NCBI GenBank assembly: GCA_963719145.1
Contig: CAVRAX010000001.1
Location: forward strand, 263,708 to 327,707
Direction: 5' to 3'
Length of the DNA stretch: 64,000 bases
DNA from: an uncultured Chloroflexia bacterium
GTDB lineage: Bacteria > Chloroflexota > Limnocylindria > Limnocylindrales > CSP1-4
In this document: positions 1 to 14,494 of the stretch, piece by piece
Numbering within the stretch: position 1 is the stretch's first letter
How the letters are laid out: every line of letters starts with the position of its first letter
Notes under the pieces: generated by a model
Seen by the model: only the letters and a program-made list of their open reading frames with translations
Databases searched by the model: none
Told to the model about the DNA's origin: nothing
Made by a program: the position numbers and the translations under genes

Positions 1-759
1 GAAGGCCCCGACCTTCGGCCCGACCGAGAGGTAGCCGGTCACCGGCGTCGGCGAGCCCTGATAGGCGTCGGGCGTCCAGTAGTGGAACGGGACCGCTGCG
101 ATCTTGAACGCGACCCCTGTCGTCATGAAGGCCAGCCCGAGCGCGAGCCCCGCCGAGATCCCGCTTCCGGCGACGAGCGCCGCCAGGGCCTCGGCGACGC
201 CGGCGACCCGGGTCGTGCCGGTGAGGCCCCAGACGAAGGCCAGGCCGAACAGGAAGATCGCCGAGCTGAACGAGCCGAGGAGGAAGTACTTGATGGCACC
301 CTCGGTCGAGTAGCCGTCGCCCTTGTGGTAGCCGGCCAGCAGGTAGCCGGGCAGGACCATGAGCTCGAGGCCGATGAACAGGACGAGGAGGTCGGCCGAG
401 GCGGAGATGAGCATCGCCCCGGTCATCGCGAAGATGAGCACGATGGCGAACTCCGCGACCGGCAGGCCGCGCGGCTTCAGGTAGTCCGGCCCGAAGACGA
501 TCGTGAGGGCGATGATCCCGATGAAGACGATGTCGAGGAAGGTCGTCAGGTCGTCGACCTTGTAGGACCCGCCGAACGCGGTGGCCGGCGTCGTGCCGGT
601 GACGAGCGTCAGGACGGCCACGATCGCGAGCCCGCCGAGGCTGACGGCGAGCACCGGCTCGCGCCGGCCCGGCCAGGCCACGTCGACGACGATGACCGCG
701 GCCGCGAGGAGGATGGCCGCAGCGAGCGGCGCGATCGTGACGAGGTCCTGGAAGGTCAT
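1..759 (-). CDS. nuoN: NADH-quinone oxidoreductase subunit N (5' part; gene continues beyond window start)
   Basis: Reverse-complement ATG at 757-759 opens MTFQDLVTIAPLAAAILLAAAVIVVDVAWPG..., a typical hydrophobic NuoN N-terminus. It starts 10 nt after the nuoM stop. The ORF is truncated by the window edge. Confidence 0.8.
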   Translation of the reverse strand, partial: MTFQDLVTIAPLAAAILLAAAVIVVDVAWPGRREPVLAVSLGGLAIVAVLTLVTGTTPATAFGGSYKVDDLTTFLDIVFIGIIALTIVFGPDYLKPRGLPVAEFAIVLIFAMTGAMLISASADLLVLFIGLELMVLPGYLLAGYHKGDGYSTEGAIKYFLLGSFSSAIFLFGLAFVWGLTGTTRVAGVAEALAALVAGSGISAGLALGLAFMTTGVAFKIAAVPFHYWTPDAYQGSPTPVTGYLSVGPKVGAF

Positions 760-768
760 CGCGGCGGC

Positions 769-2436
769 CTACGCCCCGGTCTCGGCGGCGGCCCCGCCGG
801 CACCGGCCGAGCCGGCGGCCGCCGGCCGCGGGCCGAACGGCAGGGTCACGATGCGGGCGACGACGACCGCGGCCAGGAGGCCGAGGCCGGCGGCCACGAC
901 GAGGGGGTCGATCGCGATCGCCGTCCCCCTCGCGGCGTCGTTGAGGGCGCTCGTCGCGCTGCCGTCGATCAGCGTCAGGACGATCCCGGGGAAGAGCCCG
1001 AAGGCGACCACGAGCGCGCCGAGCGGGGCGAGGGTCAGGATCTCGACGGGGCTGATGTCGGTCAGGTGGCCGCCGAGGCCGGCCAGGAAGCCCGACAGCT
1101 CGCCGGTCACGACCCGCTGGAACATCCACAGCAGGTAGGCCGCGGCGAGGATCATCACGAACGTCGCGACGGCCGCCGCGGCCGGGATCGCCGCGAAGGT
1201 GCCGACCAGGGTCAGGAACTCGCCGACGAAGCCGGACAGGCCGGGCAGCCCGGCCGAGGCGAAGACGAAGAATCCAAGGATCGCGGCATAGACGGGCGTC
1301 TTCGCCGCGAGCCCGCCCATCTTCGCGATCGTCCGATCGTGGGTCCGCTCGTAGATGACCCCGACGAGGAGGAACAGGGCCCCGGTGATGAGGCCGTGGT
1401 TGACCATCTGGAGGATCGCCCCGGCCATGGCCTGCGGCTGGAAGACGAAGATCCCCAGGGTCACGAAGCCCATGTGGCTGACGGACGAGTAGGCGACGAG
1501 CTTCTTGAGGTCGGGCTGGACGAGGGCCACGATCGCGCCGTAGATGATCGCGATCAGGCTCAGGACGATGATCGCCGGGGCGTACGTCTGGGCCGCGTCG
1601 GGGTAGAGCGACAGGGTCCAGCGGATGAAGCCATAGCCGCCGAGCTTCAGGAGGACGCCGGCCAGGATCACCGAGCCGGCGGTCGGCGCTTCGACGTGGG
1701 CGTCCGGCAGCCAGGTGTGGAACGGGAACATCGGGACCTTGATCGCAAAGGCCAGGAAGAACGCCGCGAAGGCGAGGAGCTGCAGGGTGTCGCCGAAGCC
1801 GACGCCCTGCGTCGCGTACTGGCGGAGGACCACGAAGTCGAAGGCCCCGGTCCAGTCGCCGCCGTGGGCCGCCTGGAAGGCGAACGCCGTGGCCAGGATC
1901 GCGACGAGCATGAGCAGCGAGCCGACGAGGGTGTAGAGGACGAACTTGATCGTCGCGTAGATCCGGTTGGCGCCGCCCCAGATGCCGATGATCAGGTACA
2001 TCGGGACGAGGACGATCTCCCAGAAGATGTAGAAGAGGAACGCGTCGAGGGCCAGGAAGACGCCGATCATCCCGACCTCGAGGACCAGGAACGAGATCAT
2101 GTATTCCTTGATCCGGGTCTGGATCGGCTTGAAGCTCGCCAGGATGCTGACCCAGGTCAGGGTCGTCGTCAGGACGACGAGGGCGAGCGAGAGGCCGTCG
2201 ACGCCGAGCTTGTACTCGATGCCGAAGTGGGGAATCCAGCCGAGCTCCTCGACGAACTGGAAGAGGCCGCCTCGCTCCGATGAGAACCCCAGCACGAGGA
2301 GCAGCGAGGCCACCCAGGCGATGAGCGCGGCGGCGAGCGCGATCGGCCGGGCATAGCGGGCCGGGAAGAACGCCACCACGAGCGCCCCGACCAGCGGGAC
2401 GAAGGTGATGATCGACAGGATCGGCAGGCCACCCAT
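769..2436 (-). CDS. nuoM: NADH-quinone oxidoreductase subunit M
   Basis: 555-aa ORF with antiporter-like TM helices and conserved NuoM/ND4 motifs (HTWLPDAHVEAPTAGSVILAGVLLKLGGYG). Confidence 0.95.
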   Translation of the reverse strand: MGGLPILSIITFVPLVGALVVAFFPARYARPIALAAALIAWVASLLLVLGFSSERGGLFQFVEELGWIPHFGIEYKLGVDGLSLALVVLTTTLTWVSILASFKPIQTRIKEYMISFLVLEVGMIGVFLALDAFLFYIFWEIVLVPMYLIIGIWGGANRIYATIKFVLYTLVGSLLMLVAILATAFAFQAAHGGDWTGAFDFVVLRQYATQGVGFGDTLQLLAFAAFFLAFAIKVPMFPFHTWLPDAHVEAPTAGSVILAGVLLKLGGYGFIRWTLSLYPDAAQTYAPAIIVLSLIAIIYGAIVALVQPDLKKLVAYSSVSHMGFVTLGIFVFQPQAMAGAILQMVNHGLITGALFLLVGVIYERTHDRTIAKMGGLAAKTPVYAAILGFFVFASAGLPGLSGFVGEFLTLVGTFAAIPAAAAVATFVMILAAAYLLWMFQRVVTGELSGFLAGLGGHLTDISPVEILTLAPLGALVVAFGLFPGIVLTLIDGSATSALNDAARGTAIAIDPLVVAAGLGLLAAVVVARIVTLPFGPRPAAAGSAGAGGAAAETGA

Positions 2437-2439
2437 CGC

Positions 2440-4423
2440 CTAGCGCCCCGCGATCATGAGGTACGACCCGACCATCACGATCAGCCCGATCGCGATGCCG
2501 AGGGCGTAGTTCTGGACGTGGCCGGTCTGGACCCGGGCGAGGCCGCCGCCGCTGCGGCGGGTGACCGAGCCGATGCCGTTGACGATCCCGTCGACGACGT
2601 TGACGTCGAACCACCACATGAACGCCGCGATCCGGCCGCCGATGACGATGAAGAGGAGGTGGTTGAGATCGTCGAACCACCACTTGTTGAGCGAGGCTCG
2701 GTAGAGGAACGGGATCCGCGCCGAGAGGCTGCGGACGTCGGCCTGGCGCGGCCGGGCCCGCAGGCCGGCGATCTCGACCCCGAACAGGCGCCACGCGACG
2801 AGCATGCCGCCGAGGGCGACGGCGATGCTGACGAGGATCAGGGCCCCGTCGATGCCGAAGATCGCGAACGCTTCCTCGTGACGGCCGAGGATCGCGAGGC
2901 CGTGCTCGTAGACCGGCTCCAGCCAGCCGGCCAGGAGGCCCGGGCCCTCCGCCCCGACGAGCGGCCCGAGCGGCGGGCCGGGCCAGCTCAGGATCAGGCC
3001 GAGCACGAGCGACGGGATCGCGAGGAGCCACAGCGGGATGGTCATCACGCGGGGCGACTCGTGGATCTTCGGCTCGACCTCCGGGTCGACCCGGCTCTCG
3101 CCCCAGAACGTCAGGCCGATGAGCCGGAACATGTAGAACGCGGTCATGATCGCGACGACGACGCCGATCGCCCAGACCCAGGCGAAGCCCGCCTTGTAGG
3201 CCTCGCCGAGGATCTCGTCCTTGGAGAAGAAGCCGGCCAGCGGCGGGATGCCCGGAGATGGCGACCGCGCCGATGAGCATCGTCCAGTAGGTGTGCGGGA
3301 TCTTCTTCGCCAGGCCGCCCATCTTCCGCATGTCCTGCTCCTCGTGGACGGCGTGGATGACCGAGCCGGAGCCGAGGAACAGCAGGCCCTTGAAGAAGCC
3401 GTGGGTCATGAGGTGGAAGATCGCCGCCGTCCAGGCGCCGACGCCCAGGGCCGCGAACATGTAGCCGAGCTGGCTGAGCGTGGAATACGCCAGGACCCGC
3501 TTGATGTCGGTCTGGGTCATCGCGATCGAGGCGGCCAGGATCGCGGTGAAGATGCCGATCCCGGCCACGACCACCATCACCTCCGGCGCGCTGGCGAAGA
3601 TCGGGTTGGCCCGGGCCACGAGGTAGACGCCGGCGTTGACCATCGTCGCGGCGTGGATGAGGGCGCTGACCGGCGTCGGGCCCTCCATCGCGTCCGGCAG
3701 CCAGACGTGGAGCGGGAACTGGGCGCTCTTGCCGACGGCCCCGGCGAAGACGAGCAGGGCGATGAGCCAGACCGGCACCGGGAAGGCGACCAGGGTCGGG
3801 CTCGTCAGGACCCGGATGGAGTCCTGGATGTTGAGGGTCCCCGTGTCGACGAAGATCGCCATGATCCCCAGGGCGAAGCCGACGTCGCCGACGCGGTTGA
3901 CGAGGAAGGCCTTCTTGGCCGCCAGCGAGGCCGAGTTCTTGCGGTACCAGAATCCGATGAGCAGGTAGGAGCAGAGGCCCACCAGCTCCCAGGCCACGAA
4001 GACCGTCAGCCAGCTGTCGCCGAGGACGAGCAGCAGCATCGAGAACATGAACAGGTTGAGGTAGGCGAAGAAGCGCCAGTAGCCCGGGTCGTGGCTCATG
4101 TAGCCGATCGAGTAGACGTGGACGAGCAGCCCGATCGTCGTGACGACGATGAGCAGGCAGGCCGTCAGGTTGTCGACGACGAAGGCCGCCTCGACCTGGA
4201 ACGTCCCGGCCGGGATCCAGTCCCACAGCCGGACCGTGACGCTGCCCTCGGCGAAGCCGCCGGTGAGGGCGGTCGCGACGACGATCATCGCGATGACCCA
4301 CGAGGCGAAGACCGCGCCGACGGGGATCCAGTGGGCCTGCTTGCCGAGCCGTCGCCCGATCACGGCGGTGATGACGAACCCGGCGAGGGGCAGCCCGGCG
4401 ATGAGCGGGATCAGGACGTCCAT
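2440..4423 (-). CDS. nuoL: NADH-quinone oxidoreductase subunit L, interrupted by an apparent +1 frameshift at 3251-3253 (pseudogene or sequencing error)
   Basis: Frame A from the ATG at 4421-4423 (rc) reads [15 protein letters not shown] ... LSQLGYMFAALGVGAWTAAIFHLMTHGFFKGLLFLGSGSVIHA...IPHTYWTMLIGAVAISG. Conserved NuoL sequence then continues in a different frame as ...GIPPLAGFFSKDEILGEAYKAGFAWVWAIGVVVAIMTAFYMF..., which is the 2440-3147 ORF. One extra C in the CCC run at 3251-3253 (GGG on the coding strand) accounts for the shift. Confidence 0.8.
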
Positions 4424-4734
4424 CAGCGCCGCATCGCGTCGTACTCGTCGACGAGCGGCGTCTTCCGGTTCCGGTAGATCGCGATGACGATGGCCAGGCC
4501 GACCGTCGCCTCGGCGGCGGCCACGGCGATGACCATCAGGGCGATGACCGCGCCGTCGGCCTTGAGGTCGGGGATGAACGAGCCGAAGGCGACGATGGCG
4601 AGGTTGACCGCGTTGAGCATGAGCTCGATCGACATCAGCATGCTGATCGCGTTCCGGCGGGCAAGGAACCCGAACGTGCCGATCGCGAACAGGGCGCCCG
4701 ACAGGATGAGGTAGGTGTCGAGGGAGTCGGCCAT
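4423..4734 (-). CDS. nuoK: NADH-quinone oxidoreductase subunit K
   Basis: 103-aa [51 protein letters not shown]..., a typical NuoK. Its stop overlaps the nuoL start (TGATG). Confidence 0.95.
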
Positions 4735-5339
4735 CAGTCGGGCTCCACGCCGGCGTCGGCGCTCGGCTCCCGCTTGGCGATGAAGACCCCGCCGATCACC
4801 GCCGCGAGGAGGAGGACGCTGACGATCTCGAACGGCAGGACGTACTGGTCGAAGAGCACCCCGGCCAGGGTGTCCGTGGCCAGGCGGATCCGGTGGCTCA
4901 CCGCGCCCCAGTCGGTCGCCGAGACCCCGAGGCCGATGAGGACCGCGAGGACGATCGCGGCGACCGCGGCCGGCGCCGCCTGGGTCTGGAAGACGAGGCG
5001 GGCGGGCGCGGCCTTCGACTGGGTGAGCATGATCGCGAAGAGGATGAGGACGCTGATCGCGCCGATGTAGACGATGACCTGGGCGGCGGCCACGAGCGGG
5101 GCGCCGACGACGACGTAGATGCCGGCCAGGGCCAGGAAGCAGACGATCATGGCCAGGCCGCAGCGGATGATGTCCCGCATCGTCACAACGGCCAGGGCCG
5201 AAGCGAGCATGAGCGTGGCCAGGGCGGCCAGCAGGGCGTCGTCCACCGAGCCGCCGCCGAGCATGTAGACGAGGATCGCCGGGGTCGTCACGATCGCGCC
5301 CGCGACCGCCGCGGCGATGAGGTAGAGCCAGGCCCGCAT
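4734..5339 (-). CDS. nuoJ: NADH-quinone oxidoreductase subunit J
   Basis: C-terminal 201 aa of track ORF 4734..7553, starting at [17 protein letters not shown] (ATG rc at 5337-5339); NuoJ-like TM protein. The upstream part of that track ORF is an out-of-frame artefact. Confidence 0.85.
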
Positions 5340-5347
5340 CGTGCCGC

Positions 5348-7990
5348 CTACTTCGCGGGGGCGTGCGTGCCGCCCGCGCCGCCGCCGTCGTGGCCGTTCG
5401 TCGTCAGGGCCGAGCCACCGTTCGCGCCGTTCCCGCCGCCGATCGTCAGGCTCGCCGGCAGGACCGGCAGGAGCCTGCCGCGATCCACGAACCGGCCCTC
5501 GTCCGCGGCCCGCTGGAGCCAGTCGCGCTCCTTGTGGATGTAGGTCATCTCGGTCTCGCGGTCGACCTCGGCGAGGGCCATGAGGTCGATCATCGGCTCG
5601 GCCCGGCTGGTGTGCGAGAGCTCGAACTCGCCGCCGTCGCGGAGGGCGTCGTAGGGGCAGGCGTCGACGCAGATGCCGCACAGGATGCAGCGGCTCTCGT
5701 CGACCTCGTACTTGGTCAGGACCCGCGGCTTCGGCATGAGCGCGCCGGTCGGACAGGTCTCGGCGCAGCGGCCGCAGGACACGCAGGGCGTGTCGTTGAG
5801 GCTCATGTCGAGCGGCGTCGTCACGAGGGTGTCGAAGCCGATCCGCATGAAGTCGTAGCAGGCGGCGCCGACGACCTCCGAGCAGACCTGGGCGCAGCGG
5901 CCGCAGTCGATGCAGCGTGACGGCTCGCGGAGGATGAACGCGTGGCTGTCGTCGCGGATGTAGTCGTGGTTGACGCCGGTGAAGCGGTTCTCCGTGACGC
6001 TCCGGTAGCCCGCCCCCTGGTGGTACTGCGGCTCGAGCGTCTGGAGCGTCGTCCCGTACTCGATCCCGAGGCGCCGGAGGTCGCAGAAGCCGATGGCCTC
6101 GCAGGTGCACTGGAGGCAGCGGGTCGACTCGGCGACCGCCTCGGCCCGCGAGTAGGGGATCTCGTACTCGACATAGCTCGTGTTGCGGGCCTCGGCCTCG
6201 AGGGCCTTCAGGCGGTAGCGCGGCTCCTTCACCTCGGCGGTGAAGGGCACGATCGAGAGGAACTCCGGCTTGGGCTCGGCGAGCGTCTGGCGGGTCTTGA
6301 TCTCGGCAAGGTCGTGACCGCGCAGGAAGGCGTCGACCGCGTAGGCCGAGCGGCGGCCCTCGGCGACCGCCTCGACGACCGTGGCGGCCCCCATCCGGAC
6401 ATCGCCGCTGGCGAAGACGCCGGGCCGGCCCGTCTCGAAGGTCACCGCGTCCGCCTGGAGGCGCCGGTTCCTGGTGGCCGTGGGGCCCGTGGAGCCGGGT
6501 CCGATCCAGTCGAGCTCGGGACCCTGGCCGATGGCCAGGAGGACCCGGTCGCAGGGGATCGTGAACTCGGTCCCGGGGGCCGGCTCGGGGCGGCGCCGGC
6601 CCGACGCGTCGGGCTCGCCCAGGGCCATCCGGATGAACTCGACCCCGGTGACGTCGCCCTTCTTGTCGGTCATGACCCGGGTCGGGCCGGCCTGGAAGAT
6701 CGCGGTCACGCCCTCCTCGATCGCCTCGTGGACCTCGCCTGCCGCCGGCATGTCCTTCATGTCGCGGCGATAGACGAGGGTGACCTCCTTCGCGCCCTGG
6801 CGAACGGAGGTCCGCGAGCAGTCCATCGAGGTGAAGCCGCCGCCGATGACGATGACCCGTTTGCCCGCGTGGTCCGGGTAGGGCAGGCCGAGGGTCGCCG
6901 TCCGGAGGTACTCGAGGCCGTCGAGCACCTCTGCGGCGTCCTCGCCCGGGATTCCCAGCTTGTTGGTGTCGTAGCAGCCGATCGCGATCAGGACGGCGTC
7001 GAAGCCCTGGAACTGGAGGTCGTCGAGGGTGAAGTCGCGGCCCAGGCCCTGGTTGCAGACGATCGCGCCGCCCAGCCGGGTCACCGACTCGTATTCCGCC
7101 TCCAGGACCTCGACCTTCGGCAGGCGGTACTGGGGGATGCCGTAGCGGAGCATCCCGCCGGGGGCCGGGTCGCGCTCGAAGACGGTGACGTCGTGGCCGT
7201 TGATGAGCAGGTAATAGGCGGCGGCCATGCCGGCCGGCCCCGAGCCGATGACCGCAACCTTGCGGCCGGTCTTCGCCTGGACCTCGAACGGGACGGGCGG
7301 ATCCTGTCCGTCGTCGAGCATCGCCTTGAGGACCTGGTCGCCGGCGTAGCGATGGCTGTCGCGGATGGCGATCGCCTCGTCGACCTCGTCGCGCCGGCAA
7401 TGCTCCTCGCAGGGCGCCGGGCAGACCCGCCCGAGGACCGACGGGAAGGGGATCGTTCGCTTGAAGATCCGGGTCGACTCGCGCCAGTTGGCGCTGGCGT
7501 TCTCTTTCAGGAAGCCCGGGATGTCGATGTGGCTGGGGCACTTGTTCTGGCACGGCGGCAGGCAGTAGGCGTTGTGGTCGCTGAAGATCAGCTCGAGGTT
7601 CGTCCGCCGCAGGCGGCGCAGCGCCTCGGTCTGGGTCTGGACCGTCATCCCGTCCTCGGCGTCGCGGGAGCAGCTGATCGGCGGGTGCTCCTCACCCTCG
7701 ACCTCGACGACGCACATCCGGCAGGCGCCGAAGCCGGGCAGCTTCGGCTCGTAGCAGAGCGTCGGGATCTCGATCCCGTTGTCCCGGCAGACCTCCAGGA
7801 TCGTCTGGCCCTCGAGGCCCTCGACGACGCGCCCGTCGACCTCCATCCGGATCGGCGGCGTCGACTGGGGGCGCTGCGGGGCCTGGGTCGTGATCAGGCG
7901 CTCGGCGAGCGTGTCCTCCCGCGCCGTGACCGTGTCGTACACGATCGGCGTGTCGGGGCGGTTGTCCGGGCGCGTGATCAGGTCTGCCAA
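5348..7990 (-). CDS. Chimeric Fe-S flavoprotein: NuoG-type N-terminal 2Fe-2S domain, GltD/PreT/NfnB-like NAD(P)H:FAD oxidoreductase, NuoG-type 4Fe-4S segment, NuoI C-terminal half
   Basis: 880-aa ORF with TTG start at 7990 (alternative ATG at 7846, [10 protein letters not shown]). 2Fe-2S motif [19 protein letters not shown]. GltD/DPD N-terminus [20 protein letters not shown]...[22 protein letters not shown] plus Rossmann segment [18 protein letters not shown]. NuoG-like [16 protein letters not shown]...[21 protein letters not shown]-terminus [24 protein letters not shown]...EFEL aligns with the second half of NuoI (E. coli [32 protein letters not shown]). No molybdopterin-like NuoG domain. 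Confidence 0.8.
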
Positions 7991-8000
7991 GCTCGGGGCC

Positions 8001-9392
8001 TCAATGCGTCGCGCTCGCCGCCATCGCGACCGGATGGCAGACGCCGGCGGGGCAGGAGCTGCGCTCGAGATGCTCGTCGAGCTCCGCTCTGAAGTATCGC
8101 ATCCCGCTCATGAGCGGGAGGGTCGCCAGGCGCTCGTGGTCGCACAGGGCCGAGCCCACGATGTCCTCGGCGAGGTTGGCGAGGAGGTCCAGGTCCCCGG
8201 CCCGCGACGTGCCGGCCGCGAGATGGTCGCCGATCTCCGACAGCCGCCGCGTGCCGATCCGGCAGGGGATCGTCTTGCCACAGGCCTCGTCGGCGCAGTA
8301 GCGCGTCAGGACCCGGGCGACGTCGACGATGCAGGCCCGATCGTCGGCCACGATGATCGACCCGGAGCCGATGTGGGCGCCGACCTCGCGGAGCGGCCCG
8401 AAGGCGTACGGGGTGTCGAGCAGCGCCGGCGGCAGGATCCCTCCCGAGGGGCCGCCGACGAGAACAGCCTTCACGGATCTCCCCGGCCCGAGTGGGCCGC
8501 CAAGAGCCGTCACCTCGCGGAGCGGCGTGCCCAGCGGAACCTCGGCGACACCCGACCGCTCGCCGCCACGGACCTGGACGAGGATCGTGCCCGGGCTGTC
8601 GGGGGCGCCGATCGCGCCGAAGGCGTCGGCCCCGTTGACGAGGATCCAGGGGATCGCGGCCAGGGTCTGGACGTTGTGGACGACCGTCGGCAGGCCCCGA
8701 AGGCCCCGCGTCGCGGGGTGGGGCGGGCGCTGCTCCGGCTGGCCCCGCTTGCCCTCGAGGGCCTTGAGGAGAATCGTCTCCTCGCCCAGGAGGTAGGCGC
8801 CCTGGACGGCCTGGATCGCCACGTCGAGATGGCGGCCGGCGCCCAGGACGTTCGAGCCGACGAAGCCGGCCTCGGCGGCGGCGGCCAGCGCCGCCTCGAG
8901 CGTGCGGATCGTGGTCGTCGCGTCCGACCGGACGGCGATGATCGCCTCCTCCGCGCCGATGGCGAAGGCGGCGATCGCCAGGCCTTCGATGACCGCGTAC
9001 GGGTTGCCCTCGAGGACCGCCCGATCCGTCTGGCTGGCCGGGTCGGCGCCGAAGCCGTTGGCGACGACGACACGGCCCCGGGCAGGCGTCTCGCTCGCGG
9101 CTCGCCACTTGTCGGCCGCCGGATACCCGGCGCCGCCGCGACCCCGGAGCCCCGAGGCGCCGACCGCGGCGATCGTGGCCGTCGCCCCGAGGTCGCGGAC
9201 CGCCTTCCGGAGGCCCTCGAAGGCGCCGGCGCGGACGGCCGCGTCGAGATTCGTCGGATCGGTCTGATCGGGCGCCGGCTGCGGGGCGATCTTCTTGCCG
9301 GCCTTCGAACGCCTCGGCGCGCCGGCCGTGGGCCGAGGCAGGAGGATCGCCGGCCAGCCCTTCGGCGTGTCGAGGATCGTGATGTTGCTCAT
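8001..9392 (-). CDS. nuoF: NADH-quinone oxidoreductase subunit F (51 kDa flavoprotein) with a variant N3 cluster motif
   Basis: 463 aa from MSNITILD (ATG rc at 9390-9392); the track ORF 8001..9890 extends upstream out of context. FMN/NADH glycine motif GASGLRGRGGAGYP, then NPYAVIEGLAIAAFAIGA. The N3 region reads EACGKTIPCRIG...LCDHE rather than the canonical CGxCxPC. Confidence 0.9.
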   Translation of the reverse strand: MSNITILDTPKGWPAILLPRPTAGAPRRSKAGKKIAPQPAPDQTDPTNLDAAVRAGAFEGLRKAVRDLGATATIAAVGASGLRGRGGAGYPAADKWRAASETPARGRVVVANGFGADPASQTDRAVLEGNPYAVIEGLAIAAFAIGAEEAIIAVRSDATTTIRTLEAALAAAAEAGFVGSNVLGAGRHLDVAIQAVQGAYLLGEETILLKALEGKRGQPEQRPPHPATRGLRGLPTVVHNVQTLAAIPWILVNGADAFGAIGAPDSPGTILVQVRGGERSGVAEVPLGTPLREVTALGGPLGPGRSVKAVLVGGPSGGILPPALLDTPYAFGPLREVGAHIGSGSIIVADDRACIVDVARVLTRYCADEACGKTIPCRIGTRRLSEIGDHLAAGTSRAGDLDLLANLAEDIVGSALCDHERLATLPLMSGMRYFRAELDEHLERSSCPAGVCHPVAMAASATH

Positions 9393-10054
9393 GCGTCGCC
9401 ACCGGGCCGGCCGCCGAGCGAGGCGTCGAGGCCGGCGAGATAGGCGGCCTCGGCCGGCCGGCGAGCCGCGATCGCGGCGGCCTGCTCGGAATCGGCCGGC
9501 GCCTCGAAGCGGAGGTGACGGTAATAGGACGCCGTGCCGTAGATCATCGCGTACCAGGCGCCCGTGACCTGGCTGATCCGCTTCAGCGCCGCGACCGGCA
9601 GGTAGCCGTAGGCGGCCTGGGTCGCCTCGAGGATCTCGAGCATCCGCTTCGGGTCGTCGTCGTGCTCCTCGAGGATGTCGTCGAGGACCGCCATGTCGAG
9701 TCCCTCGAAACGGGTGTACGCGGCATCCGGGACGGGCCGGCCGGCCCGCCGGAGCGCCGACTCCTCGCGTCGCTCGCCGTACGTCTCGGCCGGACCCCAG
9801 TGGACGTGGAAGCGGCCCTTCGTGTCGAGGCCGCCCATGTCGATGCACTCGATCGGGCAGGCCTGGGCGCACTGGAAGCAGGTCTCGCACTTGAGCGTGC
9901 CGTATTCGTCGTAGAGGAGCTGGAGGCGGCCGCGGAACTTCGGCGGGACGTCGGCCCTGACCTCCGGGTAGCGGATCGTCGCCTTCGGCTCGAAGAAGCG
10001 GCGCAGGGTCAGGCCCAAGCCGCGGACGATGCCGAGTCCGGGGATCAGGCTCAT
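9389..10054 (-). CDS. Fusion protein: NuoI N-terminal half (one 4Fe-4S motif) plus truncated NuoE-like helical domain (no 2Fe-2S cysteines)
   Basis: 221-aa ORF. Residues 1-75, GLGIVRGLGLTLRRFFEPKATIRYPEVRADVPPKFRGRLQLLYDEYGTLKCETCFQCAQACP, align with the NuoI N-terminus and first CxxCxxCxxxCP motif. The C-terminal part, DDILEEHDDDPKRMLEILEATQAAYGYLPVAALKRISQVTGAWYAMIYGTASYY, resembles the NuoE N-terminal domain. No Cys follows the first cluster motif. The stop overlaps the nuoF start (ATGA). Confidence 0.8.
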   Translation of the reverse strand: MSLIPGLGIVRGLGLTLRRFFEPKATIRYPEVRADVPPKFRGRLQLLYDEYGTLKCETCFQCAQACPIECIDMGGLDTKGRFHVHWGPAETYGERREESALRRAGRPVPDAAYTRFEGLDMAVLDDILEEHDDDPKRMLEILEATQAAYGYLPVAALKRISQVTGAWYAMIYGTASYYRHLRFEAPADSEQAAAIAARRPAEAAYLAGLDASLGGRPGGDA

Positions 10055-10094: not shown

Positions 10095-11483
10095 TCATCC
10101 GCCGACCAGGACGACCGCGAAGGCGGTCACGAAGAGGTTCAGCAGGGCGGCCGGCAGGAGCCACTTCCAGGCGAAGCCCATGAGCTGGTCGATCCGGACC
10201 CGGGGCAGCGTCCCCCGCATCCAGACGAAGAGGAAGACGAAGGCAAACGTCTTGCCCAGGAACCACAGCAGGCCGGCGACCCAGTCGAAGCTGACGTAGG
10301 CCCAGGCCAGGATGAGCCCGACGGCGACGACGTTGAAGAGGAGGAAGCCGACGATCAGGGCAACCCACCAGCGCATCGAGCTGCGGAGGAGGTAGAACGG
10401 CGCCGCGAGGAGGAGCGTCCCGAGGACCGGCACCAGCGCGACCACGAAGATCAAGCCCAGGCCGAGGCCGCCCGGGTCGAGCGGGATCGTCACGGGGGTC
10501 GTGATCCCGAGCCCGGGCAGGAGCCCGCCGATCCAGTCGAGGATCGGGTCGATGTCGAACGGCGCGTTCCAGCCGCCCAGGAAGAGGACCACGGTCAGCG
10601 CCGAGAGGATGAACACGTTGACGTACTCGGCGAAGAAGAAGAAGCCGAAACGCATCCCCGAGTACTCGGTGGCGAAGCCGGCCACGATCTCCGAATCGGC
10701 CTCGGTCAGGTCGAACGGCGTCCGATTGCCCTCGGCCGTCGCGGCGATGAAGAAGATCAGGAAGCCGAGCGGCTGCCGGACCAGGTACCAGTCGGTGAAC
10801 CAGCCCGACTGCTGCTCGACGATCGTGTTGAGGCTCATCGTCCCGGCCAGGATCAGCAGGCCCACGACCGAGAGGGTGAGCGGGATCTCGTAGCTGATGA
10901 TCTGGGCGGCAGACCGGAGGCCGCCCAGGAGCGAGTACTTGTTGAAGCTCGACCAGCCACCCATCAGCAGGCCCACGACCCCGAGGCCGCCGACGGCGAA
11001 GAAGTAGAGCAGGCCGATGTTGAAGTCCTGGCCGTACAGGCCGGGCGCGAACGGCAGGACGACGACCGTGAGGACGGCGGCCGCGTAGGTCACCACCGGG
11101 GCCCAGGTGAAGACGACCGCGTCGGCCCCGGTCGGGGTGAAGTCCTCCTTCATGAGGACCTTGAGGCCGTGGACGACGGAGAGGAGGGTGCCCCACGGCC
11201 CGACCCGGTCCGGGCCGATCCGGAGGTTCATGAAGGCGATCACCTTCATCTCCAGGAAGATGTTGAGGAACGCGATCGGGATCGTGATCACCAGGATGAT
11301 CGTCGCCGCGGCCACGAAGCGGACGATGCCCAGGTTCGCGGCGAGGATGTCGACGACCGGTCCGCCGAAGATGACGATGGCCGCGATCAGGCCTGCCGTC
11401 AGGATCGCCAGCAGCGGCACGACCGTGAAGACCACCTTCCCCGGCAGGGTCAGTCGCCCCCAGGCCCTCGCGACGGCCGTCAT
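10095..11483 (-). CDS. nuoH: NADH-quinone oxidoreductase subunit H
   Basis: NuoH/ND1 motifs (MNLRIGPDRVGPWGTLLSVVHGLKVLMKEDFTP, AEGNRTPFDLTEADSEIVAGFATEYSGMRFGFFF). Start taken at the ATG rc at 11481-11483 (MTAVARAWG). The track ORF start at 11579 would overlap the dispersed repeat. Confidence 0.85.
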   Translation of the reverse strand: MTAVARAWGRLTLPGKVVFTVVPLLAILTAGLIAAIVIFGGPVVDILAANLGIVRFVAAATIILVITIPIAFLNIFLEMKVIAFMNLRIGPDRVGPWGTLLSVVHGLKVLMKEDFTPTGADAVVFTWAPVVTYAAAVLTVVVLPFAPGLYGQDFNIGLLYFFAVGGLGVVGLLMGGWSSFNKYSLLGGLRSAAQIISYEIPLTLSVVGLLILAGTMSLNTIVEQQSGWFTDWYLVRQPLGFLIFFIAATAEGNRTPFDLTEADSEIVAGFATEYSGMRFGFFFFAEYVNVFILSALTVVLFLGGWNAPFDIDPILDWIGGLLPGLGITTPVTIPLDPGGLGLGLIFVVALVPVLGTLLLAAPFYLLRSSMRWWVALIVGFLLFNVVAVGLILAWAYVSFDWVAGLLWFLGKTFAFVFLFVWMRGTLPRVRIDQLMGFAWKWLLPAALLNLFVTAFAVVLVGG

Positions 11484-11526
11484 CGGCGGCCCCGGCGTGC
11501 GGTGGAACCGTGACCGCCGGCGGGCG

Positions 11527-11617
11527 AGGTCAGCCCAAGGCGGCGTCGAGCACGCGAGCGAGCGCACCCAAACGTGCATGAGCGAGCGAGCGCAGACGGC
11601 AACGCCGGGCTGGCCCG
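11527..11617. repeat. Dispersed ~90-bp repeat, copy A (nuoD-nuoH intergenic)
   Basis: GGTCAGCCCAAGGCGGCGTCGAGCACGCGAGCGAGCGCACCCAAACGTGCATGAGCGAGCGAGCGCAG...TGGCCCG. About 85% identical to copy B at 27038-27127. Shares the core GAGCGC-N5-7-AACGTGCRTGAGC with copy C at 19645-19740. Confidence 0.7.
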
Positions 11618-11628
11618 TCCGACGGCGG

Positions 11629-12852
11629 TCACTTGTCGACGCCGCCCATGATCGGGTCGAGCGAGGCGTTGATCGTCATCCAGTCGGCGATGAGCCCGCC
11701 CGGCACGAGCCGCCCGAAGCTCTGGAGGTGGAGGAAGCTCGGGTCGTGGATCCGGAACCGGAAGGGCTGGTCCGTGCCGTCGCTCACGGCGTAGATGGCG
11801 TACTCGCCGCGCGGGCCCTCGATCGCGGCGAAGGCGCGGCCGGGGCGCGGCCGGAGGAGCCGCGGCAGCTTCGCCATGACCGGCCCGTCGGGCATCTGGT
11901 GGAGGCACTGGTCGATGATCCTGAGGCTCTGCTTGACCTCGTCGATGCGGAGCAGGTAGCGGGCCAGCGAGTCACCCTCTGTCCGGGTCGGGATGTCGAA
12001 GTCGATCTCGGGATAGACGGAGTAGGGGTGGGCACGCCGAAGATCGAGGGGCACGCCCGAGGCCCGCAGGTTCGGCCCCGTCCAGCACATCTGCAGGGCG
12101 GTCTCGCGATCCATGACCCCGACGCCCCGGTTGCGCCGGGCGAAGATCTCGTTCTCGTTCAGCAGCCCGACGTTGGCCTCGACCTGCTCCGTCGCCCGGC
12201 TCATCCAGTCGCCGAGGCGGCTCATGAACTCGTGGTTCAGGTCGCCGTTGACGCCGCCGATCCGGAAGTAGTTGAAGAGCATCCGCTGGCCCGTGATCGA
12301 GGCGAGCATGTCCACGATCTCGTCGCGCTCGATGAAGCTGTAGAGGATCGGGGTGAGGCCGCCGAGGTCCAGGGCGTGGAAGCCCATCGCCAGGAGGTGG
12401 CTGGAGATCCGGTTGAGCTCCCCGGTCAGGACGCGGATGTACTCGGCCCGCCGCGGGACCTCGACGTCGAGGAGCTTCTCGTAGGCCATGACCGCGGGCC
12501 ACTCGCAGAAGAGCGAGCTGACGTACTCGAGGGGGTCGAGGTAGGCGATCGTCTGGTGGAGGTCGGCGTTCTCGCAGAGCTTCTCGACGCCGCGGTGGAG
12601 ATAGCCCAGGACAGGGTCAAGGTCGACGATCGTCTCGCCGCTCAGCTTCATCACGACCCGCATCACCCCGTGCGTGGCCGGATGGTGGGGGCCCACGTTG
12701 ATGAGCAGCTCGCCGTCCTCGAGGGTGTAGAACTCCGCTTCGCGCTCCGTTCGCGGCGGGTAGGGCGGGACCGGCTCGTAGATCCCGCCGACCTGCTCCT
12801 CGAGCAGGACCCGGGGATCGTCCGCCGACGGGTGGCCGGGCACGGTGGTCAT
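11629..12852 (-). CDS. nuoD: NADH-quinone oxidoreductase subunit D (49 kDa)
   Basis: 407-aa ORF; NuoD motifs (GPHHPATHGVMRVVMKL, RIDEVKQSL, IEGPRGEYAIY). Confidence 0.95.
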   Translation of the reverse strand: MTTVPGHPSADDPRVLLEEQVGGIYEPVPPYPPRTEREAEFYTLEDGELLINVGPHHPATHGVMRVVMKLSGETIVDLDPVLGYLHRGVEKLCENADLHQTIAYLDPLEYVSSLFCEWPAVMAYEKLLDVEVPRRAEYIRVLTGELNRISSHLLAMGFHALDLGGLTPILYSFIERDEIVDMLASITGQRMLFNYFRIGGVNGDLNHEFMSRLGDWMSRATEQVEANVGLLNENEIFARRNRGVGVMDRETALQMCWTGPNLRASGVPLDLRRAHPYSVYPEIDFDIPTRTEGDSLARYLLRIDEVKQSLRIIDQCLHQMPDGPVMAKLPRLLRPRPGRAFAAIEGPRGEYAIYAVSDGTDQPFRFRIHDPSFLHLQSFGRLVPGGLIADWMTINASLDPIMGGVDK

Positions 12853-12862
12853 CGGGACCGGC

Positions 12863-13408
12863 CTAGGTGCGCACCCGGCGGACCGTGCCGGCCGGGGCGT
12901 TTCGAGGCTGGTGGGTGGCCTCCATCGGTCGCACGCCGGCGCCGGGCGAACGGGCCCCGTCGTCGGGCAGGAAGAAGTCCTTGCGGAGCGGGAAGCTGAC
13001 GTAGTCGGGCGGCATGAAGATCCGCCGGAGGTCGCGGTTGCCCTCGAAGATGATCCCGAACATGTCGTAGGCCTCGCGCTCGAGCCACTCCGCGCCGGGC
13101 CACAGCGACGTGATCGACGGGGCGCGGGGGGAGGTCCGGTCCAGGCCCACCGCGATCACCCGGAGCCAGTCCGGCGAGCTCGTGCTCCAGAAGTGGTAGA
13201 CGACCTGCATCGTCTCGCCCGTGTCCACGCCGGCGAGGTCGGCCAGGAGCTTGAAGTCGAGCCCCGGCTCGTCGTGGAGGGCGCGCAGGACGTCGGGCAC
13301 GTCCTTGGGCTCGATCCGGATCTCGGTCTCGTCGTGACGCTGTCGGACGGGGCCGGCCAGAACTTCACCGAAGCGCGCCTCGAGGCGGGCCTTGAGCGCT
13401 CGATCCAC
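12863..13408 (-). CDS. nuoC: NADH-quinone oxidoreductase subunit C (30 kDa)
   Basis: 181-aa ORF with NuoC-like sequence (WPGAEWLEREAYDMFGIIFEGN). Confidence 0.9.
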   Translation of the reverse strand: MDRALKARLEARFGEVLAGPVRQRHDETEIRIEPKDVPDVLRALHDEPGLDFKLLADLAGVDTGETMQVVYHFWSTSSPDWLRVIAVGLDRTSPRAPSITSLWPGAEWLEREAYDMFGIIFEGNRDLRRIFMPPDYVSFPLRKDFFLPDDGARSPGAGVRPMEATHQPRNAPAGTVRRVRT

Positions 13409-13412
13409 GGCC

Positions 13413-14147
13413 TCAGACCCCCGACGGGACGGTGGGGCCCACGGCCCGCTCCGGCCAGTGGCCGCGGCGGTCCTTGACCAGCTGCTGGAGCTTCATCATC
13501 CCGTAGATGAGCCCTTCCGGACGGGGCGGGCAGCCGGGAACGTAGACGTCGACCGGCATGACCCGGTCGATCCCCTCGACCGTGCTGTAGCTCCGCTTGT
13601 AGCGACCGCCCGAGCAGGTGCAATCACCCATCGCAACGCACCACTTGGGCTCGGGCATCTGCTCCCAGAGCCGGACCAGCGGTCCGGCCATCTTCGTCGT
13701 CAGGGTCCCGGCGACGATGAGGACGTCCGCCTGACGGGGCGAGGCCCGGAACGGGAACATCCCCCATCTGTCCATGTCGTTCTTGGATGTCGCCGCGCTC
13801 ATCATCTCGAAGGCGCAGCAGGCGAGGCCCGACAGGAGCGGCCAGAGGCTGTTGGCGCGGAGGAGGTCGAGGACGTAGTCCGCCTTCGTCGGGATGATCT
13901 CGAGGACGCCGGACCAGCGGGCATCGTCACGGGCCTCGACCCCGCTCGCCGCGACGTCGGTGAGGTGGGTGACGTCGGTCGGGAGGCCGCCGCTGTAGGC
14001 GGCCGGATCGGCGGCCGACCAGAGCTCGTTGTGGACGATGATCGGGGTCGTCACCGCATCGGTCCCGGGGACCACGAGCGCCGTCGAGGTGCGCTCGCCC
14101 CCGGACGTGTTGCCCGGCGTTCGGCCGGCGTCGTCCGTCAGCGCCAA
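13413..14147 (-). CDS. nuoB: NADH-quinone oxidoreductase subunit B (with ~85-aa N-terminal extension in the longest ORF)
   Basis: 244-aa ORF; conserved core from [28 protein letters not shown] to [17 protein letters not shown] (N2 cluster cysteines). The start may be internal. Confidence 0.9.
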
Positions 14148-14494
14148 TTGAGGACCCCCTTGCGCCAGGCGTACGCGAGCCCGAGGAGGAGGATCGCGAC
14201 GAAGATGAACATGCTGATGAACCCGCCGAGCAGCAGGTCCCGGAAGACGATCGCCCAGAGATAGATGAAGACGACCTCGATGTCGAAGGCGACGAACAGG
14301 AGGGCGTAGATGTAGAACGAGAGGCCGAAACGACCGTGCGTGTCGCCGACCGTGTCGATGCCGGATTCGTAGGGCAGGCCTTTGTGGCCGTCGCCCCGAT
14401 TGCGGTGGGAGATGAGCCAGGCGGCGCCGAAGGTCAGAAACGTGAACGACCCGGCAGCGATGGCGAACCCCACGATGTACCAGATCCCGGTCAA
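14138..14494 (-). CDS. nuoA: NADH-quinone oxidoreductase subunit A
   Basis: 118-aa TM protein ([14 protein letters not shown]...[13 protein letters not shown]...LWAIVF). TTG start at 14494, with GTGAGG 7 nt upstream as a possible RBS. Confidence 0.85.

Follow-up and report, generated by a model that had tools for sequence, protein, structure and literature searches.

The 64,000-nucleotide stretch of DNA analysed here (the window), from contig CAVRAX010000001.1 of an uncultured Chloroflexia bacterium (Limnocylindrales; assembly GCA_963719145.1), carries a respiratory complex I operon of 13 genes on the minus strand. Its order, nuoA-B-C-D-H-X-F-Y-J-K-L-M-N, was established by open reading frame (ORF) calls and domain searches; X and Y encode chimeric proteins and F a NuoF-type subunit. 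From the sequences we consider it probable that a stripped-down module derived from the NfnABC/Stn transhydrogenases replaces NuoE, NuoF and NuoG in this enzyme, and that it is joined covalently to the quinone module (Q-module) through a NuoI subunit split between X and Y. The arrangement is real, is conserved in hundreds of uncultured Chloroflexota genomes from soil and freshwater and, as far as could be found, is undescribed.

Since the region has a G+C content of about 70%, ORFs were picked by homology and third-position GC. Subunits A, B, C, D, H, J, K, L, M and N are encoded together, and every one of them has a Pfam match. NuoB keeps the ligands of cluster N2 in its translation (CC...C...CP motifs, including PGCPP), and the quinone-site His and Tyr of NuoD are present in GPHHPATHG (HHPxxHG) and LGYLHRG (GYLHRG); as judged from these translations, the Q-module is intact and the membrane arm ordinary. 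No nuoE, nuoG or intact nuoI was found in the operon or in the rest of the 64-kb window. X and nuoF are joined by an ATGA overlap, Y begins with TTG 8 nt past the nuoF stop, and nuoJ begins 8 nt past the stop of Y. An earlier reading of the stretch (the original prediction) had given this operon order and these ORFs, all of which were recovered in place on the minus strand. Its proposal that nuoI is split around an embedded E'-F-G'::GltD cassette was borne out by the Pfam and TIGR01971 domains detected in X, F and Y (Table 1).

The two parts of NuoI proved to be complementary, as the original prediction had supposed. X residues 12-74 match positions 1-62 of the 121 in the NuoI model TIGR01971 (51.8 bits), and Y residues 756-801 match positions 71-116 (45.0 bits). 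When X(1-79) was joined in silico to Y from residue 754 onwards, we obtained one continuous match to positions 1-116 at 104 bits. NuoI/TYKY chains in the PDB also match X, over residues 9-73 (E = 3e-11). As a control, unsplit NuoI genes from metagenome loci (L140-L162) were matched adjacently by the N-half of X (approximately residues 21-69) and the C-half of Y (approximately residues 728-805). In the 2x[4Fe-4S] ferredoxin fold, each cluster is held by three Cys residues of one CxxCxxCxxxCP motif and a fourth from the other motif. Because ligation in this fold crosses the two motifs, each NuoI cluster would be ligated jointly by X and Y, and we infer that the two halves form a single 2x[4Fe-4S] ferredoxin fold across two polypeptides.

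Beyond its NuoI half, X residues 125-184 match positions 2-61 of the 145 in PF01257 (NuoE family). There are no cysteines after C70 in X or in 81 orthologs, and Pfam searches detected no 2Fe-2S (C1/N1a) thioredoxin-like domain in X. When residues 117-184 were compared with the PDB, the best match was NfnC (9bov_C residues 19-86, E = 8e-10); StnA and HydC were also listed, and complex I NuoE was absent from the match list. In an AlphaFold 2 model of X, residues 121-200 are confident (predicted local distance difference test, pLDDT, 79-94), and a Foldseek search with this part returned NfnC as the top match (root-mean-square deviation 1.4 Å over 69 columns). The model is informative for the NuoE-like domain only and is silent on the NuoI half.

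Protein Y, of 880 residues, combines Fer2_4 (46-121), Fer4_20 (143-222), Pyr_redox_2 (244-545) and Fer4_Nqo3 plus Fer4 (686-784) domains in Pfam searches. The Pyr_redox_2 region, whose motifs are invariant, provides the second dinucleotide-binding site for flavin adenine dinucleotide (FAD) that had been proposed in addition to NuoF. Over residues 47-780, Y can be aligned without interruption of the domain order to the whole of the first ~700 residues of NfnA (9bov_A, E = 2.5e-162), and it also aligns with StnC (8oh5_C, 4e-141) and an archaeal NfnA (9n5u_A). All the aligned cluster cysteines of Y, NfnA and StnC are conserved. The region homologous to A2-A4 (residues 621-752) consists of CxxCxCx5C plus a two-motif ferredoxin domain, with 102 of 127 columns invariant. 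The alignment stops where the formate dehydrogenase (Fdh)-like domain of NfnA/StnC, which holds cluster A5, starts, and the C-half of NuoI starts exactly there. The cofactor-less Fdh/molybdopterin-like domain is absent from Y, which ends approximately 100 residues past the A4 motif. Domain searches and alignments thus agree with the earlier claim that both the N1a domain and the molybdopterin-like domain of NuoG are missing.

The GltD module of Y finds 4ylf_B (2e-74), 5jca_L and 2vdc_G in the PDB. Its YRR and GIPQYRL motifs are invariant, and because they are shared with the NADPH-oxidising NfnA and StnC, they suggest that NADPH reacts at the FAD of Y; the earlier suggestion of NADPH use is plausible on the strength of these motifs. 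In the cluster domain of this module, His213 stands where NfnA/StnC have the Lys that ligates A7, and it is invariant in 62 orthologs. The equivalent residue is also His in L081, L083, L101, L105 and L122, representing each split-NuoI lineage examined. A Glu has been reported at the corresponding ligand position of the FAD-proximal cluster in NfnB of NfnAB (PMC10482914). From these alignments, His at the FAD-proximal [4Fe-4S] cluster looks like a signature of the complex-I-embedded form.

F contains Complex1_51K and NADH_4Fe-4S domains only, with no Fer4 match in Pfam. Its best PDB match is NfnB (350 bits), followed by StnB (346) and HydB (341), whereas the NuoF of complex I scores at most 282 bits (Mycobacterium smegmatis; Thermus thermophilus, 238). 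F aligns with the core of NfnB (residues 113-525 of 584) and ends nine residues later; by alignment and Pfam, the N-terminal B5 domain and the C-terminal B3/B4 ferredoxin domain are both absent. Judged by these matches, the cassette is a derivative of the NfnABC/Stn type of NADPH-linked electron-bifurcating transhydrogenase, which belongs to the Bfu family. We therefore rejected a rearranged canonical NuoE/F/G as its source, X, F and Y all being nearer to NfnC, NfnB and NfnA than to complex I subunits. The original prediction, which had derived the cassette from NuoE/F/G, had missed this origin.

We next consider how widely the arrangement is conserved; taxon labels here are those of the deposited records. 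Homologs of X number 2954 at E<=1e-3; among the top 120, identity is 77-100% and length about 221 residues, and the named records are labelled Chloroflexota or Ca. Limnocylindrales. At least 543 stretches of species-representative genomes encode a relative of X. Synteny was analysed in the best 80 of these, found with X, nearly all of which are Chloroflexota metagenome-assembled genomes (MAGs). The order A-B-C-D-H-X-F-Y-J-K-M is complete in 53 of the 80 loci, and the remainder show shorter runs in the same order, as expected where contigs end; the gene order holds in all 80. All cysteines assigned to FeS ligation are invariant, 28 of 28 in Y (62 orthologs) and 5 of 5 in X (81 orthologs), and Y has 72-80% invariant columns in its FeS domains. 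Within the cassette, conservation is highest for Y (80-93% identity across loci) and lowest for F (58-79%). A common, already annotated family had been named as grounds for setting the proposal aside. The family is indeed common, running to thousands of proteins, with at least 5887 members for Y, but its annotation is generic ('FAD-dependent oxidoreductase', 'formate dehydrogenase major subunit', 'hypothetical protein') and the architecture is undescribed in the literature searched. No cultured carrier was found, the labels of cluster members being all MAG or metagenome.

Conservation on this scale also bears on whether the operon might be an assembly artefact or pseudogenised. The nuoL gene of the window has a 1-nt frameshift, which indicates that the assembly contains indel errors, and a related locus breaks off within Y. 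However, the same architecture recurs, with invariant cofactor ligands, in hundreds of independent assemblies from different projects and platforms, and because of this we regard the chance of an artefact or pseudogene as negligible. In the locus that breaks off (L052:12011-12110, Limnocylindrales), Y follows nuoF normally until, about 30 codons in, the sequence becomes abruptly unrelated; J, K and M are missing from the locus, which reflects either a chimeric join in the assembly or a real local rearrangement. We rejected it as a variant lacking Y, given the contig breakpoint about 30 codons into that gene. Among the X relatives, P0140, P0204, P0210, P0215 and P0234 are frameshifted read-throughs into Arg/Pro-rich out-of-frame translation, and from such sequences indel errors seem to be common in public assemblies of these high-GC genomes.

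The homology to NfnABC suggests a path for electrons through the enzyme. In NfnABC the path runs FAD-A7-A6-A3-A2-A1-B1-FMN (FMN, flavin mononucleotide), and the A2-A4-A5 branch into the cofactor-less Fdh-like domain is considered a non-functional remnant (PMC11829005; PMC10482914 for the latter also). In the arrangement we favour, the split NuoI fold would lock the input module onto NuoB, NuoD and NuoH, and hydride would enter at two sites, NADPH at the FAD of Y and, probably, NADH at the FMN of F. Electrons from the FAD would travel through A7, A6 and A3 to A2, and those from the FMN through B1 and A1 to the same cluster. From A2 they would take the A2-to-A4 branch, a dead end in free NfnA/StnC, on to the N6a/N6b-type clusters of the split NuoI, then to N2 in NuoB and to quinone, while the membrane arm (A, H, J, K, L, M and N) would pump protons.

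Several points weigh against this proposal. The joined NuoI halves score just below the curated TIGR01971 cutoff of 113.05 bits, and a single-sequence AlphaFold model of them is uninformative (pLDDT 47.8). The step from A4 to the NuoI clusters would follow from the order of domains in the sequence rather than from measured distances, and the NADPH specificity of Y, though plausible, is based solely on motifs conserved with NADPH-using homologs. A Cys of the B1/N3 motif is lost in F and the FMN loop is remodelled, so that the FMN branch may be altered or weakened. A second, canonical nuoE/F/G/I set may be present elsewhere in these genomes, the absence reported above covering the 64-kb window. 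Finally, the organisms concerned are all uncultured, and the function proposed for the enzyme is drawn from sequence alone.

The absence of C1, B3/B4 and B5 leads us to predict, from sequence, that the window enzyme is a non-bifurcating, ferredoxin-independent NAD(P)H:quinone oxidoreductase. The minimal bifurcation site of NfnABC is a flavobicluster, [B1-FMN-C1], from which low-potential electrons pass via C1 to B3/B4, the ferredoxin site (PMC11829005), and characterised Bfu homologs without clusters of the C1/B3/B4/B5 type neither bifurcate nor use ferredoxin (PMC9304861). It is nevertheless conceivable that flavin-based bifurcation or confurcation has been retained, coupling NADH/NADPH transhydrogenation or ferredoxin to quinone, or operating in an NfnSL-like manner at the GltD-type FAD. 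The cassette descends from a bifurcating family, the GltD/NfnL fold does bifurcate in NfnSL (PMC10482914), and a sister lineage, described below, retains all the Bfu parts in the same operon design. We regard this as improbable, since the window lineage lacks C1, B3, B4 and B5 and the FAD of StnC, from which a single cluster chain leaves, is reported to be non-bifurcating (PMC10482914). The coupling of bifurcation or confurcation to quinone reduction raised in the original prediction accordingly appears unlikely (PMC11829005; PMC10482914).

The state of the FMN branch is the point on which the leading rival explanation turns, namely that the enzyme is a proton-pumping NADPH:quinone oxidoreductase served by NADPH only, in which F, with an impaired B1/FMN site, is a structural relic. 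The B1/N3 motif of F reads CGK[T]IPC, its second Cys being replaced in all 70 clade orthologs (Thr in 47, Ser in 23) and, in L083 and L086, by Ala. In the FMN loop, NADEGDPGAF has become NG[Y/F]GADPASQ, with the replacement of two acidic residues, and NNVET has become xNVQT; as noted above, F is also the least conserved protein of the cassette. Other features of F speak for a remodelled rather than a dead site. The subunit is under purifying selection, with GRGGAG, GEET and K95 invariant in its orthologs, and the altered motifs NGYGADP and C-D-H-E-R are themselves fixed. The fourth B1/N3 Cys is followed in all 70 orthologs by an invariant D-H-E-R, where Bfu proteins have x-L-G-x-T, and the invariant His or Asp past this Cys could serve as a replacement ligand; this may mean that the fourth ligand of a [4Fe-4S] cluster is not Cys, or that the cluster is of the [3Fe-4S] type. 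Of the five residues with which NfnB contacts NADH (named in PMC11829005), F retains four (G156, K164 and E274 unchanged, F159 as Tyr/Phe); at the Phe294 position the clade has His or Tyr, and in loop 3 five of nine positions are kept. These comparisons suggest that the NADH site of F is probably retained, and we consider an NADPH-only enzyme unlikely. Simple decay of a NuoF was likewise rejected, because the changed motifs are fixed and flanked by invariant cofactor motifs.

Complex I is reversible, and an enzyme with the same architecture as we propose might run mainly in reverse, the proton-motive force (pmf) driving electrons from quinol to NADP+ (and NAD+) to provide NADPH for biosynthesis. 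Free NfnABC has a role in NADPH production (PMC11829005). However, the sequence gives no sign of direction, and no lithotrophy genes were found in the window, whose content is that of ordinary heterotroph housekeeping (GlpX, PurH, ClpB, Lon, transporters and similar functions). We would give a mainly reverse mode only a slim probability.

Related lineages in which NuoI is split place the window form in context. A family of approximately 1200 proteins of 253 residues (X'), two members of which are labelled Thermoleophilia, combines the N-half of NuoI with a complete NuoE carrying all four 2Fe-2S cysteines. In L081 (GCA_040769125.1, JAXGLO010000001.1, 6255-20762), which represents this sister lineage, the order is A-B-C-D-H-X'-F'-Y'-J-K-L-M-N. 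F' (636 residues) has a thioredoxin-like N-terminal domain (B5) and a C-terminal pair of [4Fe-4S] motifs (B3/B4), and Y' (824 residues) has the C-half of NuoI at its end; the C1 domain is present in L081 and in P0249-type proteins. Identity between the window and L081 is 29% for X, 43% for F, 46% for Y, 46% for NuoD and 53% for NuoM. On this sequence evidence complex I of L081 incorporates a complete Nfn-type Bfu module, and it is a candidate for an enzyme linked to both ferredoxin and NADPH, and possibly for one that bifurcates.

Intermediate forms of X were also found. In those of 282 residues (P0161/P0390, labelled Ca. Limnocylindria; L083:809-1666; L086), the thioredoxin-like domain of NuoE is present, but of the 2Fe-2S cysteines the first pair is kept and the second lost. 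The B1 Cys has been lost only in the window clade and in its relatives L083 and L086. The Asp-to-Tyr change of the FMN loop occurs in the window clade, L104 and most of the nuoB-nuoD-X-F-Y group described below, but not in L083 or L086. The split of NuoI and the His ligand are present in every locus examined across these lineages. Because the L081 lineage keeps a complete Bfu module, the window form can be seen as a reduced descendant of such a state, and the simplest reading of the sequences is a progression from full Bfu to a reduced and then a further remodelled form.

A soil-metagenome group (L122:5835-12454 and about 30 further loci, among them L101, L103, L105, L108 and L111-L134) has only nuoB-nuoD-X-F-Y, flanked by unrelated genes (PhoD, ABC transporter) and with no adjoining genes for membrane subunits. 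F is reduced in this group, its four-Cys B1 motif being intact, and the N2 motifs of NuoB and the quinone-site motifs of NuoD are preserved; the genes for the membrane arm may lie elsewhere, or else the products form a soluble Q-module plus N-module. The X-like protein of the L122 group closely resembles P0247, whose cluster contains a protein labelled Ca. Limnocylindria, and the NuoB-like ORF of L122 has a long N-terminal region. Such cassettes, standing beside nuoB and nuoD alone, could be taken to mean that the products of X, F and Y are a soluble NAD(P)H oxidoreductase in their own right, encoded inside the nuo operon, and that the real NuoI lies elsewhere. We find this very improbable: apart from these halves the window operon has no NuoI, without which no donor could be connected to N2, and the halves are complementary and invariant. 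Furthermore, the nuoH-nuoJ slot, the usual place of nuoI, is conserved as the site of the cassette across two phyla, and NuoB and NuoD remain as partners even in the short clusters.

A bolder view of these lineages would be of one machine linking three or four redox pools to the pmf, in which exergonic quinone reduction drives electrons uphill from NADH to NADP+ or, in the sister lineage, the reduction of ferredoxin. In that case the window form would keep part of the coupling through its two flavin sites and the remodelled B1 cluster. Such a quinone-coupled, proton-pumping bifurcating transhydrogenase would represent a coupling mode not known for complex I, and we consider it quite unlikely.

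Comparison with described systems clearly points, at the level of sequence, to a locus built from complex I and Nfn-Bfu parts that fits none of canonical complex I, Bfu, Nfn-Bfu or Nuo-Bfu. With the NfnABC/Stn enzymes (Caldicellulosiruptor saccharolyticus 9bov/9bp5, Sporomusa ovata 8oh5, Thermococcus sibiricus 9n5u) it shares the three-subunit C-B-A design, and Y has the order of NfnA/StnC ([2Fe-2S], GltD-like FAD/NADPH module, A2-A4) together with the arginines of YRR and GIPQYRL; the A subunit of Nfn-Bfu is likewise recognised in Y by these domains, but not by an Fdh-like domain or a Lys ligand. NfnABC is soluble, whereas the window cassette lies within a nuo operon, lacks C1, B5, B3/B4 and the C-terminal Fdh-like domain with A5 (which is required for StnABC assembly), and has a NuoI half fused to both its C-type and its A-type subunit. 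The A7 ligand is His in the window and a 'strictly conserved' Lys in StnC homologs, and the second B1 Cys is Thr/Ser in the window. The C1 cluster of BfuC and the B3/B4 and B5 domains of BfuB, by which the Bfu family is defined, were not found in the window locus.

Nuo-Bfu, a predicted and uncharacterised enzyme, has 14 subunits (A-N), NuoEFG being replaced by BfuABC (Schut et al., 2022; PMC9304861), NADH and ferredoxin as donors, and a distribution in Geobacter/Proteobacteria, Deferribacteres, Planctomycetes and Nitrospirae (PMC9304861). It resembles the window enzyme in using a Bfu-family module, encoded in the middle of the nuo cluster, as the electron input of a proton-pumping complex I. 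As described, its bifurcating BfuBC core is complete and an Nfn/GltD FAD domain is lacking. The window operon has 13 genes rather than 14 subunits with a complete BfuABC, and differs in its split NuoI, Nfn-type A subunit, reduced BC core and phylum. Neither NuoI nor an Nfn-type A subunit in a Nuo context is mentioned in PMC9304861.

Canonical complex I (T. thermophilus 2fug/4hea, M. smegmatis 8e9g) shares A, B, C, D, H, J-N, the N2 ligands and the quinone-site residues with the window enzyme, and the cofactor logic is the same (FMN, N3-like, N1b-like and [4Fe-4S] clusters, N6a/b, N2). The window enzyme, however, has no N1a and no NuoG molybdopterin-like domain, has NuoI in two polypeptides rather than a single chain, and has an additional FAD/NAD(P)H site and two extra clusters; its cassette lies between nuoH and nuoJ instead of between nuoD and nuoH. 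Nor does the cassette show a canonical N-module, as X has no NuoE cysteines, Y no molybdopterin domain, and F scores 340 bits against the NuoF equivalog cutoff of 559. In Mbx-like operons, a gltD-related flavoprotein substitutes for NuoI (Degli Esposti, 2015; PMC4758237), so that a GltD-type NAD(P)-binding flavoprotein again occupies the NuoI position of a complex-I-like membrane complex; going by that description, NuoI is replaced there and NuoF is absent, whereas in the window NuoI is kept, though split, and a NuoF-type subunit is present. The NfnSL (NfnAB)/GltD/PreT-DPD family corresponds to the Fer4_20 plus Pyr_redox_2 module of Y, and Fer4_20 with two Rossmann domains, which mark this family, were found in Y above Pfam cutoffs and with invariant motifs. 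Bifurcation in NfnSL is centred on the FAD, and a Glu ligates the proximal cluster, whereas in the window the module lies inside an NfnA-type chain and has a His ligand. The only variants discussed in a 2025 hidden Markov model survey of complex I are those with fused C/D and B/C/D subunits, and in the literature searched, whose coverage was incomplete, neither a split NuoI nor a complex I with an Nfn-type module was found to be described.

If correct, the proposed architecture would provide a natural complex I with a dedicated entry site for NADPH, and would change the way in which respiration and NADPH balance are modelled for the Limnocylindria, an abundant group in soils and freshwaters. 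The A2-A4(-A5) branch, called a remnant in the NfnABC/Stn structure papers, would here be the main route to quinone. The division of a natural 2x[4Fe-4S] ferredoxin fold over two polypeptides, as a docking joint, bears on how modular redox enzymes recruit input modules, and the series of full, partly degraded and reduced forms could be used to test the requirements of Bfu bifurcation and the evolution of the complex I N-module. Where a pipeline scores complex I by nuoE, nuoG and nuoI, these operons will probably be classed as incomplete.

Table 1. Positions in the window of the complex I genes, of the segments of X and Y and of selected residues.
Feature	Position	Strand	Basis
nuoA	14138-14494	-	Pfam Oxidored_q4, E=1e-31
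nuoB, N2 cluster subunit	13413-14147	-	Pfam Oxidored_q6
nuoC	12863-13408	-	Pfam Complex1_30kDa
nuoD, quinone-site subunit	11629-12852	-	Pfam Complex1_49kDa, E=9e-85
nuoH	10095-11579	-	Pfam NADHdh, E=2e-104
X, NuoI N-half and NuoE-type helical domain	9389-10054	-	profile searches
X 1-85, NuoI N-half: amphipathic N-terminus and first CxxCxxCxxxCP (C56, C59, C62, C66)	9800-10054	-	TIGR01971
X 86-116, conserved linker	9707-9799	-	16/35 columns invariant
X 117-190, NfnC/NuoE-type N-terminal helical domain	9485-9706	-	PF01257
X 191-221 and stop, Ala/Gly-rich poorly conserved tail	9389-9484	-	0/31 columns invariant
nuoF (F)	8001-9392	-	Pfam Complex1_51K and NADH_4Fe-4S
F 374, position of second B1/N3 Cys	8271-8273	-
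F 417-420, D-H-E-R region	8133-8144	-
Y, chimeric protein with NuoI C-half	5348-7990	-	profile searches
Y 1-45, N-terminal extension	7856-7990	-	tblastn matches begin at residue 1 in most loci
Y 46-125, [2Fe-2S] domain, A1/N1b type (C79, C90, C93, C107)	7616-7855	-	Fer2_4, E=1e-20
Y 126-230, GltD-type 2x[4Fe-4S], A6/A7	7301-7615	-	Fer4_20
Y His213	7352-7354	-	alignment to NfnA/StnC
Y 231-560, GltD/NfnL-like FAD and NAD(P)H domains (GSGPAG; GGGFTSMD...VYRR)	6311-7300	-	Pyr_redox_2, E=3e-30
Y 561-620, linker	6131-6310	-	alignment to NfnA and StnC
Y 621-752, three [4Fe-4S] sites, homologs of NfnA A2-A4	5735-6130	-	Fer4_Nqo3, Fer4_7
Y 753-850, NuoI C-half (C768, C771, C774, C778-P, EFEL, C-terminal helix)	5441-5734	-	TIGR01971
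Y 851-880 and stop, Gly-rich unconserved tail	5348-5440	-	0/30 columns invariant
nuoJ	4734-5339	-	Pfam Oxidored_q3, E=9e-31
nuoK	4423-4734	-	Pfam Oxidored_q2
nuoL, broken by 1-nt insertion near 3253	2440-4426	-	ORF and Pfam checks
nuoM	769-2436	-	Pfam Proton_antipo_M
nuoN, 5' part, leaves window	1-768	-	Pfam Proton_antipo_M

Three of the remaining subunits show features of their own. If the TTG at 14147 is the start of nuoB, its product carries a low-complexity N-terminal extension of approximately 85-100 residues (13893-14147) ahead of the Oxidored_q6 domain. When aligned with the 375-residue NuoH of L081, the nuoH product has an insertion of approximately 80 residues, enough for about two additional hydrophobic helices, ahead of the final conserved helices, and an N-terminal extension holding another hydrophobic helix; its true start is probably Met33, and tblastn coverage suggests that the insertion is common to the clade. 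In nuoL (3245-3260, minus strand), an extra G in a run of G residues gives TCC GGG CAT where TCC GGC ATC is expected, the protein sequence being interrupted between AISG and IPPLAGFFSKDEIL. The reading frame continues across this site in 60 of 63 orthologous loci, and the frameshift is probably a consensus indel error of this assembly rather than the mark of a pseudogene.

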